Source: an uncultured Candidatus Saccharibacteria bacterium | GTDB taxonomy: Bacteria; Patescibacteriota; Minisyncoccia; Phycocordibacterales; SBAW01 | Assembly: GCA_964566795.1 (NCBI GenBank) | Contig: CAZMIU010000001.1 | Location: forward strand, 399,797-463,796 | Direction of reading: 5' to 3' | Length of the DNA stretch: 64,000 nucleotides | Part shown: positions 14,601-15,712 of the stretch, in pieces | How the letters are laid out: each line of letters opens with the position of its first letter | How positions within the stretch are numbered: position 1 is the stretch's first letter | Position numbers and translations under genes: made by a program | The notes under the pieces: model-generated | What the model saw: the letters and a program-made list of their open reading frames with translations, nothing else | Told to the model about the DNA's origin: nothing | Databases searched by the model: none

Positions 14601-14817
14601 CTTCTACCGAGCCTGAGGGCCCCCATATCGACACGTAGCAGTTGGTCGTTGTTGCGGTATAGTCGTCGTCGTACACAAAATCGCCCAGCACTACTGTTTG
14701 GCCGGGAGCATACGTGGTATAGGCAGCCGACGCAGATGAGGCAAAAAAGAGAGGTAGCGCGAGCAGAACCCAAACCGAGAGAAGAAATCTCCTATTTCTT
14801 CTTGGCGGAATTATCAT
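11644..14817 (-). CDS. Giant Ser/Ala/Thr-rich repeat surface protein with a poly-Gly linker and a C-terminal type-I dockerin; the N-terminal signal carries a twin-arginine-like motif
   Basis: Start MIIPPRRNRRFLLSVWVLLALPLFFASSASA|AY, where RRFLL is Tat-like and ASA is the cleavage site. There are about 5 repeats of roughly 110 aa (..VNANTNS.VLAASSSLGS..IPAAVW..GRTLSSFGTLAADVWSSGTRTLTGAGLDTGSLATQSDV.TASSSVAAV). A linker SSGGGGSGGGGGGGGGGGSS is followed by a dockerin duplicated Ca-binding loop DINGDAKVNGTDFSILL..DLNRDNKIDSVDFSILL. The ORF's upstream 34 aa (to 14919) were rejected because they overlap tatA. Confidence 0.7.
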   Translation of the reverse strand: MIIPPRRNRRFLLSVWVLLALPLFFASSASAAYTTYAPGQTVVLGDFVYDDDYTATTTNCYVSIWGPSGSVEVNAASMSAGADSFYSYSYSTSTHGTFPAQMSCGYAGDGSLVKQDKTFIVATSSATIPTAQEVADIVNENTNSVVLAASSSLGTSLTSVLSTLASIPASIWSYGTRSLSTFGSLAADVWSAATRTLTGAGLDTGSLATLSDVQTASSSVAAVVNANTSSVVATASSSIGSAVDALDTLSAADLATASSSIAAVVNANTNSIVLAASSSLGSVISSVASSVSGIPAAVWAAGGRTLSSFGTLAADVWSSGTRTLTGAGLDTGSLATQSDIGTASSSVAAVVNANTNNTVSTASSSVAAVVNANTNSTVSTASSSIAATVNSNTNSIVLVASSSLGAAISSVASAVTGIPAAVWDYSGRTLTSFSTLAADVWASGTRTLTGAGLSSGSLATQSDVGTASSSVAAVVNANTNSAVSTASSSIAATVNTNTVAAINTASSSVASVVNANTNSIVLAASSSLGSVISSVASSVSGIPAAVWAAGGRTLSSFGTLAADVWSSGTRTLTGAGLDTGSLATQSDVQTASSSVAAVVNANTNTQTASLSSTVSTASSSLAAVVNANTNSVVLAASSSLGSSLASLVGSVASLPAAVWNVATTTLTSPGTVGKLIVDNLDAAISGISGAGSLTAADIWTYAARSLTTAALTSGSLATLSDVQTASSSVAAVVNANTNSVVTTASSSIGSAIGNISAASNGWLVQMSDFDSALAGDVYRARVTTLYGSTLTAPNTAPAITVYDADRNTVVSGVAMTLLSTGVYEYTYTTSGSAAEGTWESVVSTQVESGKTIQTNDYWSVVSAPAQVLIQSMGSTETPSISANIRITNEGSVDYEYQYEWCVVSSVSNACGGGDDTYYASAAKLIDSGDDFDTTLSATVPLAGTYYFKTVAYFGADSSVASRQFVATAPASSGGGGSGGGGGGGGGGGSSNTRSESTPAASAPADINGDAKVNGTDFSILLAFWKTPGPFKNAAVDLNRDNKIDSVDFSILLYRWSK
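12600..14300. repeat. Long near-identical tandem DNA repeats inside the giant-protein gene (period about 370/740 nt)
   Basis: More than 200 nt is nearly identical between 13059-13275 and 13800-14016. Diverged copies lie near 12640 and 13420. Confidence 0.7.
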
Positions 14818-14950
14818 CGGTAAATCCCTTGCGCAGCGTGCGCACTGCTTCAACGATATTCTGCGCAAGCGCCGGGATCTTCCGGGAGCCGAACAAGAGC
14901 ACCAGGATAACTGCGACAATGAGCAGTTCCTTAAATCCTATATCAAACAT
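14792..14950 (-). CDS. tatA: Twin-arginine translocase subunit TatA/E (52 aa)
   Basis: Not in the ORF track because it is under 60 aa. Minus-strand translation: MFDIGFKELLIVAVILVLLFGSRKIPALAQNIVEAVRTLRKGFTDDNSAKKK, with the TM segment, the hinge FGxxK(I)P and the amphipathic KGF motif. It starts 10 nt after the tatC stop and overlaps the start of the giant gene by 26 nt. Confidence 0.8.
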   Translation of the reverse strand: MFDIGFKELLIVAVILVLLFGSRKIPALAQNIVEAVRTLRKGFTDDNSAKKK

Positions 14951-14962
14951 AATTCTTGGAGT

Positions 14963-15712
14963 CTATAAATAATGCTGCACGCGGGCCGTATGGAACGCGC
15001 TCCTTCCAGGACGGTTAATAAACAAGACCAGTTCAAACAAACCTACCAATGGCACCGCCATTACTAGTAAGGATAGGCCGTCGGTGGGCGGAAGTAAAGC
15101 AACAATAACCACAGCCGCCGCGTACACGAGGCGCCTGTTCTCTCCCAGGGCGTGGGGCGTAACTATCCCAAAGCGCAGCAGACACTGCACCGCGAGCGGA
15201 AACTGGAACAATATCCCCAAAAATACCGATGTAAGGAATATCTGGCCAAAAAATGTGCTTATGTCCCAATAGTTCGAAAGCCCCAGCGTCTCGTTAAATG
15301 AGGTGGCGACCCCGAGCGTGGCATACAGTATGGCGACCCCGTAGGCAAACCCCATGCAGAAGAGCGCCACTGCAAGCCCCGCGTAGCGCGCCAGCATGCC
15401 GCGCTCGTGCCGCGTAAGCGCCGGCCGCAAAAAGTCATACACCTGCAGCAGCGCGGCGGGGAATGTAAGTGCAAACGCGGTGCTCAGCCCGATGCTGACC
15501 GACAGCGAAAACGCCTGGAAGGGCGACGACACTATGTACGACACGTTGTTGAGCGCAAACAGCGCTATCACCTGCTTGATAAGCATAGGCGCCGCAAAAA
15601 ACCCCGCGGCAAACAGCGCGACAAACGCGACCGCAAGCACCAACAGGCGCTTGCGCAGCTCCTCAAAGTAAGGGCCGTAGTCCTTAAGCAGGTTGTGTAG
15701 CGGGGTGTCCAT
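14963..15712 (-). CDS. tatC: Twin-arginine translocase subunit TatC
   Basis: 249 aa, six TM segments, and the TatC family N-terminal pattern (LRKRLL...). Confidence 0.85.
   Translation of the reverse strand: MDTPLHNLLKDYGPYFEELRKRLLVLAVAFVALFAAGFFAAPMLIKQVIALFALNNVSYIVSSPFQAFSLSVSIGLSTAFALTFPAALLQVYDFLRPALTRHERGMLARYAGLAVALFCMGFAYGVAILYATLGVATSFNETLGLSNYWDISTFFGQIFLTSVFLGILFQFPLAVQCLLRFGIVTPHALGENRRLVYAAAVVIVALLPPTDGLSLLVMAVPLVGLFELVLFINRPGRSAFHTARVQHYL

Follow-up and report, generated by a model that had tools for sequence, protein, structure and literature searches.

The 64-kb stretch of DNA analysed here (the window) carries a complete tatA–tatC pair that belongs to an operon of nine genes, with further genes on both sides of it. 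The translocase is a minimal Gram-positive-style TatAC consisting of one TatC and one TatA, and in the present Parcubacteria lineage it appears to be hard-wired genetically to one cargo module. At the core of the combined model that we favour, with a probability of roughly 0.6, this substrate-linked TatAC would export a small protein encoded by the first gene of the operon, the signal of which usually carries Lys-Arg in place of the twin arginines.

Translocase and operon

The tatC gene (14963–15712, minus strand) encodes 249 residues that match Pfam TatC (PF00902) over profile positions 3–208 of 208 (E = 4e-37; 128.4 bits, cut-off 25.1), and the alignment spans residues 13–234 of Escherichia coli TatC. 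The score with NCBIfam TIGR00945 is 125.2 bits, which is narrowly below the equivalog cut-off of 132.7, and the protein is therefore a divergent TatC. The six transmembrane segments ascribed to it rest on the end-to-end E. coli alignment, since a crude hydropathy scan gives five peaks in which the short TM5 and TM6 are fused. The tatA gene (14792–14950, minus strand) encodes 52 residues and is the sole TatA/B-family gene at the locus. Its product matches Pfam TatA_B_E (PF02416) at E = 2e-8, with 33.8 bits where the cut-off is 21, and scores 44 bits with the NCBIfam tatAE model and 41 bits with tatB. The original prediction of a complete pair was upheld, both open reading frames being present on the minus strand with a profile match for each. 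The transmembrane segment, hinge and amphipathic helix that it attributed to TatA are all kept in the alignment to residues 4–47 of E. coli TatA, with the FG hinge read as LLFGSRK and a single hydrophobic segment at residues 9–22 (hydropathy scan). Position 8 of the TatA product is a glutamate, which is a TatB trait, and the lone TatA probably fills the roles of both TatA and TatB.

The roles of the TatC residues that bind the signal are taken from the TatBC–signal cryo-EM structure (PMC13323110). The window TatC retains the equivalents of E. coli Glu15 (here Glu18), Phe94 and Glu103, while the equivalent of Tyr100 is a threonine and that of Glu170 is a glutamine. Conservation across 120 family members is complete for Glu103 (120/120) and for an acidic residue at position 15 (120/120), and nearly so for Phe94 (117/120). 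Tyr100, which packs against the second arginine in E. coli TatC, is replaced in the present family by Thr, Ser or Leu. The equivalent of His12 is a tyrosine, as read by a hand extension past the first aligned column.

The operon runs from 19575 to 9301 on the minus strand in the order small protein, 803-residue protein, 213-residue protein, 61-residue protein, tatC, tatA, 1057-residue dockerin protein and two anchors. The genes are separated by gaps of 2–32 nt, and the end of tatA overlaps the start of the dockerin gene by 26 nt. The earlier picture of the locus, a tatA–tatC pair with two proteins beside it, holds as far as it goes, but three conserved genes for signal-less proteins, lying between the small-protein gene and tatC, and the two downstream anchor genes had been missed. 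Scanning the operon for promoters and terminators yielded nothing informative. The flanks of the cassette encode a DNA glycosylase, TspO and PilM.

We compared the window with 13 related loci. The small and large proteins are kept with tatC in 12 of these; in the thirteenth (L020) the large protein is found with tatC, and the contig starts inside the large gene. The small-protein gene lies next to the tatAC module, in the same orientation, in the window and in 12 related loci. One locus (L019) has the permuted order tatC–tatA–small–large–209–61–dockerin, but the genes are still linked. Among lineages the cassette occupies different chromosomal sites, always together with tatAC. The suggested tie between translocase and locus is supported, as tatC keeps the same partner genes in 13/13 related loci and does so down to a TatC identity of about 41%.

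Similar arrangements are known from other bacteria. As in phoD–tatAd–tatCd of Bacillus subtilis (PMC3068169), a minimal TatAC without a separate TatB lies beside the gene for its main substrate, and the Tat genes next to ywbLMN in B. subtilis and fepABC in Staphylococcus aureus (PMC3577903) likewise pair a minimal TatAC with a neighbouring substrate. All of these systems have very small substrate sets (PMC3068169, PMC3577903). The present locus differs from them in that the candidate cargo is a jelly-roll and a β-propeller protein rather than a phosphodiesterase or haem peroxidase, the 803-residue protein belongs to no recognised cofactor-binding family, and the signal is mostly of the Lys-Arg form. 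Furthermore, tatCA is here embedded in an operon of nine genes, among the products of which are three proteins without a signal and the dockerin/anchor set.

The small protein and its Lys-Arg signal

The gene for the small protein (g174; 18994–19575, minus strand) encodes 193 residues when read from the GTG at 19575, whereas public gene calls use the TTG at 19518 and give 174 residues. The protein contains ...HKRLFLKSLAVIAVGAVAASALPKRASA|LV. A long n-region places 37 residues before the basic pair, which is followed by the rest of the motif (Lys38-Arg39-L-F-L-K), a Gly/Ala-rich h-region and the sequence PKRASA|LV, which supplies a basic c-region and an AxA site. The mature part combines a conserved linker (GSTPxxxVVGxKDxxNxRxNP) with a C-terminal domain of predicted jelly-roll fold.

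The signal motif of the family is D-x-x-K-R-x-F-L-K. In 85 representative clusters the aspartate three residues upstream is present in 66, the first basic residue is Lys in 79 and Arg in six, and the second residue of the pair is Arg in all 85; the Phe, Leu and Lys that follow are found in 77, 70 and 78 clusters, respectively. The window protein has Lys38-Arg39 rather than consecutive arginines, while a true Arg-Arg form occurs in the orthologues from L002–L004 and L019. All orthologues inspected have a basic residue directly ahead of AxA, with the pattern P-(K/R)-x-A-x-A. We looked for co-variation of the first basic residue (Lys or Arg) with TatC position 15 (Asp or Glu); the loci are few and no pattern was seen.

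Compared with the canonical Tat signal S/T-R-R-x-F-L-K (PMC7317946), the small-protein signal shares the F-L-K, the second arginine, the Gly/Ala-rich h-region, the basic c-region and the AxA site. It differs in having Lys for the first arginine in most clusters, in having an aspartate three residues upstream rather than Ser or Thr directly before the pair, and in the unusual length of the n-region in the window protein. Within the operon a conserved Tat-type signal is confined to the small protein, and we consider it likely that the system is substrate-linked and has this protein as its cognate substrate.

Candidate cargo and proposed surface partners

The second gene (g803; 16550–18961, minus strand) encodes an all-β protein of 803 residues without a signal peptide. 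Its predicted fold is a six-bladed NHL/YWTD-type β-propeller with extra β domains, and a fold search indicates that the propeller resembles extracellular sensor domains; a sequence search of the PDB gave no match. The 213-residue protein (15906–16547, minus strand), which occupies the same place in 11 related loci, has a conserved N-terminal domain of about 120 residues and an acidic Pro/Thr/Ser-rich tail (pI 4.45). The 61-residue protein (15717–15902, minus strand) is conserved in 11 related loci, and in the window and most loci its gene is directly upstream of tatC. It contains 13 Asp/Glu and no Lys/Arg (pI 4.05) and has the conserved motif MALTDxNFxEGExQDF...NxFIxxE. Both of these proteins also lack signal peptides. 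Searches of Pfam, NCBIfam and PHROGs gave no significant match for any of the four upstream proteins. The only subthreshold match, to CIS_spike_tip (E = 0.005), found no backing in the fold search and was discarded.

Of the small and large proteins, only the small one carries a signal, which is the pattern expected of a hitchhiker. At two loci (L002 and L016) the large protein is of a different type, and there the C-terminal domain of the small protein differs too while its N-terminal module is retained. In two natural fusion proteins (P0480 and P0464) an L002-type small protein is joined to L002-type large-protein repeats, not to g803. It is possible, at somewhat less than even odds in our estimation, that g803 is co-exported with the small protein in this way. 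The arrangement parallels the known Tat hitchhikers of hydrogenase and formate dehydrogenase (PMC10924467), in which the gene for a small signal-bearing subunit also directly precedes that for a large signal-less one. Unlike in those enzymes, there is here no recognisable metal-cofactor family, maturation protease or REMP chaperone, and a physical coupling is suggested only by the co-variation at two loci and the two variant-type fusions.

The gene that follows tatA (11644–14817, minus strand) encodes a repeat-rich surface protein of 1057 residues which starts MIIPPRRNRRFLLS and ends in a Dockerin_1 domain (Pfam, 1.8e-8); an MG2-like match (Pfam, 8.8e-6) falls below the cut-off. The gene adjoins or lies near tatA in 11 of the 13 related loci. 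The signal peptide of the window protein contains RRNRRFLL, with no basic residue in the c-region. This Arg-Arg is missing from seven orthologue N-termini: the orthologues in L002, L003, L004, L011, L016 and L017 have no Arg-Arg, those in L012 and L013 have Arg-Arg in other contexts, and the orthologue N-termini look like ordinary Sec signals. On this comparison we rejected a conserved role of the dockerin protein as a Tat substrate, and since its orthologues lack the Arg-Arg it is probably exported by Sec, although the window protein could be a second Tat substrate in the present species. Of the two adjacent candidate substrates originally proposed, therefore, the small protein keeps its place by virtue of its conserved Tat-type signal, but the dockerin protein does not.

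The last two genes encode putative membrane anchors. The 288-residue anchor (10773–11639, minus strand) has a Sec-type signal, a cohesin-like N-terminal domain and a C-terminal transmembrane anchor; it follows the dockerin gene in L002–L004 and has same-position counterparts in L015 and L017. The anchor of about 491 residues (9301–10776, minus strand, with a likely ATG start at 10776 as read from the sequence) combines a Sec-type signal, a cohesin-like N-terminal domain and a transmembrane anchor with a charged, probably coiled-coil, C-terminal tail. Its counterparts in L002–L004 are 33–38% identical, and same-position ones are found in L015 and L017. Neither anchor has a Pfam match, so our reading of both as cohesin-like comes from sequence inspection only. 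The propeller and jelly-roll pair, beside a dockerin protein with membrane anchors, looks like cell-surface machinery.

In the mechanism that we propose, the small protein would be made with its long Tat-type signal, D-x-x-(K/R)-R-x-F-L-K, the invariant second arginine of which would pair with the TatC glutamate equivalent to E. coli Glu103. The first basic residue, usually Lys, would lie near the acidic residue equivalent to Glu15 and under the phenylalanine equivalent to Phe94. TatA would then be recruited, the folded jelly-roll protein would cross the membrane on the proton-motive force and the signal would be cleaved at AxA after crossing. The signal-less propeller may fold and bind the small protein in the cytoplasm and exit with it, as in NiFe hydrogenase. 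The 213- and 61-residue proteins may travel along, or the acidic 61-residue protein may instead be a chaperone. Outside, the complex would join the Sec-exported dockerin protein and the two anchors in a cell-surface assembly, with host or glycan binding as its likely role.

Alternative readings and Tat in CPR bacteria

The data could also be read in terms of a housekeeping Tat system that shares a conserved operon, with several scattered substrates and with neighbours co-transcribed for reasons other than export. Tat is described as a general bacterial system and is seen across CPR classes (PMC9166423), one Tat-bearing Saccharibacterium has four predicted TAT-motif proteins (PMC6031116), and the contig, of which our survey of the window covers 64 kb, is at least 590 kb long. 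We nevertheless regard this reading as unlikely, because the linkage persists through wide TatC divergence and a permuted gene order, the first gene of the cassette bears a family-wide Tat-type motif, and no other clear Tat-motif candidate was found in the window or in the approximately 160 kb of related loci scanned. CPR bacteria are also not known to have more than a few of the redox enzymes with cofactors that Tat usually serves. A domesticated phage tail-fibre or receptor-binding module, comprising the four upstream genes and placed beside tatAC by an accident of insertion, is very improbable: the four window proteins have no PHROG match, no viral model gives a TM-score above 0.25, the flanks hold no other phage genes and, although the chromosomal site varies by lineage, tatAC always goes along.

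The small protein might alternatively carry a conventional Sec signal whose n-region is basic, in which case the cargo of TatAC would be encoded elsewhere or would be the dockerin protein. The prevalence of Lys at the first position is a point in favour of this reading, given that even conservative Arg-to-Lys changes in the twin arginines are poorly tolerated in E. coli (PMC7317946). In addition, the mean h-region hydropathy of the small-protein signal (manual values) is close to, and not separable from, that of the neighbouring Sec-type signals, and the window dockerin protein has a true Arg-Arg followed by F-L-L. Sec n-regions, however, are free of sequence constraint (PMC7317946), yet the D-x-x-K-R-x-F-L-K found here is near-invariant and equals S-R-R-x-F-L-K save for one position. 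The basic residue ahead of AxA in all orthologues inspected is a Sec-avoidance feature of Tat signals (PMC7317946), Arg-Arg forms of the small-protein signal exist at four loci and the dockerin Arg-Arg is not shared by its orthologues. On balance we find the Sec reading quite improbable and retain the small protein as the likely Tat substrate.

Judged by its ribosomal proteins, the host of the window is a Parcubacteria/Paceibacteria-type CPR bacterium. The closest named homologues of its S3 protein, which are 87–89% identical, are from Pacebacteria, Adlerbacteria and Paceibacterota. L30 is absent between S5 (43223–43840) and L15 (42764–43210), which are separated by a gap of 12 nt, and S14 (45099–45284) is a 61-residue protein of the CxxC...CxxC zinc type. 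These features bear out the CPR-like lineage that had been suspected. Wherever a close TatC homologue or a locus has a named source, the label is CPR, generic function names apart, and a recent transfer of TatC from Archaea or Firmicutes is therefore disfavoured; the bacterial NCBIfam model gives 125 bits and the archaeal model 107 bits.

The accompanying statement that Tat is not commonly reported in CPR bacteria did not hold, as papers of 2018 and 2022 already record Tat genes there, and Tat in this group is as such not new. Starr et al. (2018) found tatBC in one Saccharibacterium (PMC6031116). Chiriac et al. (2022) recorded TatA and TatC in Microgenomatia, Paceibacteria and Saccharimonadia (PMC9166423); these are the same genes in the same lineages as considered here, but that survey gives presence only. 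In the literature that we searched on CPR Tat, we found no description of the conserved cassette, the Lys-Arg signal family or a candidate cargo.

The genomes of CPR bacteria are tiny and are not known to encode more than a very few of the redox enzymes with cofactors that usually justify a Tat system, which raises the question of what their Tat exports. The conserved module around tatCA offers a concrete and testable answer. A large natural family of Lys-Arg signals with its own TatC should also be useful for understanding how TatC reads the twin-arginine motif, and is timely now that a signal-bound Tat structure exists (PMC13323110).

A broader proposal, which we still regard as doubtful, is that many Parcubacteria keep Tat for the single purpose of exporting a pre-folded jelly-roll/β-propeller surface complex with swappable cargo types, on a signal that has shifted throughout the family from Arg-Arg to Lys-Arg. 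If this is true, the system would be a natural 'KR-Tat', and its cargo would be the first to be defined for Tat in CPR bacteria. In episymbiotic CPR bacteria the cell surface is the place of host contact, and the cargo would then likely belong to the host-attachment surface.

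The translocase and its operon

Both tat reading frames placed in the window by the original prediction were confirmed on the minus strand. The tatA product (14792–14950, minus strand; 52 residues) is recognised by Pfam TatA_B_E (33.8 bits against a cut-off of 21, E = 2e-8) and aligns with residues 4–47 of E. coli TatA, with transmembrane segment, FG hinge (LLFGSRK) and amphipathic helix all retained. Position 8 is a TatB-like glutamate and the NCBIfam scores are nearly equal for tatAE (44 bits) and tatB (41 bits), which is consistent with a single bifunctional TatA. The tatC product (14963–15712, minus strand; 249 residues) matches the whole Pfam TatC profile (E = 4e-37) and aligns with residues 13–234 of E. 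coli TatC. At 125.2 bits it narrowly misses the strict NCBIfam equivalog threshold of 132.7, and we therefore regard it as a divergent but unmistakable TatC. Judged by sequence, this is a standard minimal TatAC.

Publicly available gene calls for identical contigs, together with our own reading of the sequence, indicate that nine genes form one tight minus-strand operon. It opens with a small signal-bearing protein (19575–18994), followed by signal-less proteins of 803 (18961–16550), 213 (16547–15906) and 61 residues (15902–15717), the last being very acidic (13 acidic residues and no basic ones). No significant match was found for these four proteins in Pfam, NCBIfam or PHROGs, or in a PDB sequence search with the 803-residue protein only. 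Next come tatC, tatA and the gene for a 1057-residue dockerin protein (14817–11644), which overlaps tatA by 26 nt. Two anchors of 288 (11639–10773) and about 491 residues (10776–9301) complete the operon, each with a Sec-type signal, an N-terminal domain that looks cohesin-like on inspection, and a membrane anchor at the C-terminus. A Pfam search of both anchors gave no match, leaving the putative cohesin domains unrecognised. The conserved trio at 9301–14817 (minus strand), in which the repeat-rich dockerin protein also has an MG2-like match, looks like a dockerin–cohesin surface display set. We note that a repeat of about 20–30 residues (…ASSSVAAVVNANTNS…, …GTRTLTGAGLDTGSLAT…) recurs many times at 12000–14400 (minus strand), and that the assembled contigs of the same species (L005–L010) end inside or just past this region.

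Two further minus-strand observations concern the flanks. A PilM-type type IV pilus assembly gene (7520–8629, Pfam 1e-42) lies about 670 nt past the operon end, with an oppositely oriented phosphoribosyltransferase gene between them. About 2 kb upstream of the cassette, an ECF-type sigma factor gene (22780–23334) overlaps a DUF5667 protein gene (21660–22793); these may be a sigma/anti-sigma pair.

Tat-type signals and their apparent fit to TatC

At the examined loci, orthologues of the small protein share (K/R)-R-x-F-L-K, a Gly/Ala-rich stretch, P-(K/R)-x-A-x-A and a conserved mature N-terminus. A HMMER search run in full against 1.84 billion representative proteins yielded 198 relatives, 85 of which have an anchorable signal. 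Among these the second basic residue is always arginine (85/85) and the first is lysine in 79 and arginine in six, with Asp at −3 in 66, Phe in 77, Leu in 70 and Lys in 78. The signal agrees with the Tat consensus S-R-R-x-F-L-K at all positions but the first arginine, and has the basic 'Sec-avoidance' c-region of Tat signals (PMC7317946). In the window protein the n-region is long. Upstream of the publicly called start the segment PEPEYEVLEP is conserved, which makes GTG 19575 the probable start codon, for a product of 193 residues with KR at 38–39 and predicted cleavage after Ala64.

In the 2026 TatBC–signal structure (PMC13323110), the first arginine is stacked under F94 and water-bridged to TatC E15, the second forms a salt bridge with E103, and F94 is also part of the pocket holding the consensus Phe. 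Across 120 TatCs of the cassette family E103 never varies, position 15 is acidic (Asp or Glu) throughout and F94 is retained in 117; Thr, Ser or Leu takes the place of Y100. As E103 is the partner of the second arginine, both sides of the direct contact are invariant. The signal position tolerating lysine has a water-mediated contact only, and from this match we infer that signal and receptor fit each other.

The dockerin protein begins MIIPPRRNRRFLLS in the window. In its orthologues RR is absent from six N-termini and lies in a different context in two, and no basic c-region was found among the N-termini compared. We read this signal as Sec-type, its arginines being attributable to high G+C; it is conceivable that the protein is a Tat client in the window species. 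No signal was found in the 803-, 213- and 61-residue proteins. A loose motif scan of the 64 kb window gave no other real Tat candidate, and 160 kb of related loci gave only the small protein, TatC helices and a small number of unremarkable membrane helices flanked by KR.

Conservation of the cassette and its lineage

Thirteen related loci were compared with that of the window. The commonest order, small–large–third protein–about 60 residues–tatC–tatA, occurs in L001, L003, L004, L011, L012, L013/14, L015, L017 and L018; L015 and L018 have divergently oriented dockerin and anchor genes that are still adjacent. L019 is permuted with linkage retained (tatC–tatA–small–large–209–61–dockerin). L002, L016 and L020 have a large protein of a different type, the L020 contig being cut within that gene. 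Against L001, L003 and L004, the large protein is 59–64% identical, the small protein 57–63% and TatC 41–44%, so that on these identities the candidate cargo genes have diverged less than the translocase. The original prediction of a locus-specific translocase beside two candidate substrates gains much stronger support from this linkage, conserved across the related loci compared; its substrate list needs correction, as the dockerin RR is not conserved. In L002, from a Nomurabacteria-labelled MAG, two tandem tatA genes (54 and 57 residues; 10724–11104) follow tatC, and the product of the third gene in the cassette matches Glucosaminidase weakly (Pfam 3.2e-5, below cut-off), a domain also faint in L020.

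Assignment of the host to the CPR, as a Parcubacteria/Paceibacteria member, is sound: S3 (47565–48227) shares 87–89% identity with proteins bearing the names Candidatus Pacebacteria, Adlerbacteria and Paceibacterota, no L30 gene intervenes in the 12 nt between S5 and L15, and S14 is the 61-residue zinc-ribbon form. G+C is about 56%. An NCBI contig of 590,566 bp encodes TatC and S3 proteins identical to those of the window. A DUF1761 membrane-protein gene (51984–52415, minus strand; Pfam 8e-25) interrupts the S10 operon between rpsJ (S10, 52686–53057) and rplC (L3, 51246–51938). There is also a tRNA-Ile with anticodon TAT (27294–27366, plus strand), which is uncommon in bacteria, where AUA is usually read by a lysidine-modified CAT tRNA.

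The premise that Tat is not commonly reported in the CPR is weak. TatA and TatC are described in Microgenomatia, Paceibacteria and Saccharimonadia (Chiriac et al., 2022; PMC9166423), and tatBC with four predicted substrates in one Saccharibacterium (Starr et al., 2018; PMC6031116). Our TatC search returned 254 significant proteins, the organism-named ones all being CPR (Wolfebacteria, 'Patescibacteria group'). Four GTDB loci were recovered, each from a MAG that bears the label Saccharibacteria or Nomurabacteria, and the window's TatC scores higher with the bacterial than with the archaeal TatC model. Homologue names and model scores give no sign of recent TatC acquisition from outside the CPR.

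Proposed coupling of the small and large proteins

There are precedents for tat genes located next to a main substrate, namely phoD-tatAd-tatCd and the tat genes adjacent to ywbLMN and fepABC. The cassette differs from these systems in its candidate cargo without a recognised cofactor family, its signal-less partner proteins, its embedding in a surface-protein operon and its Lys-Arg motif across the family. A full-text literature search found no title or abstract on the cassette, and neither CPR Tat paper (PMC9166423, PMC6031116) describes it.

Some relatives of the small protein (P0371–P0393, P0451 and P0491) carry its jelly-roll domain and VVGxKDxxNxRINP motif at the C-terminus. These are signal-less proteins of 300–620 residues with long coiled-coil and ETTL/DxLE repeat regions, which read like phage fibre proteins and hint at domain exchange with CPR phages. 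In L017 (1060–8964), three tandem large-propeller paralogues (879, 809 and 943 residues) follow one small signal-bearing protein, suggesting several cargoes per adaptor.

L002 and L016 have a large protein of a GTGxGQ-repeat type, unlike the 803-residue predicted β-propeller protein, and there the small protein retains its signal and linker module with a different C-terminal part. The representative proteins P0480 and P0464 each fuse, in one chain, a small protein of the L002 type with repeats homologous to the large protein of that type. This co-variation and these fusions, which concern the variant cargo type and not the 803-residue protein, suggest indirectly that the small and large proteins act together and would be exported on one signal, a proposal modelled on the hitchhiker mechanism (PMC10924467).
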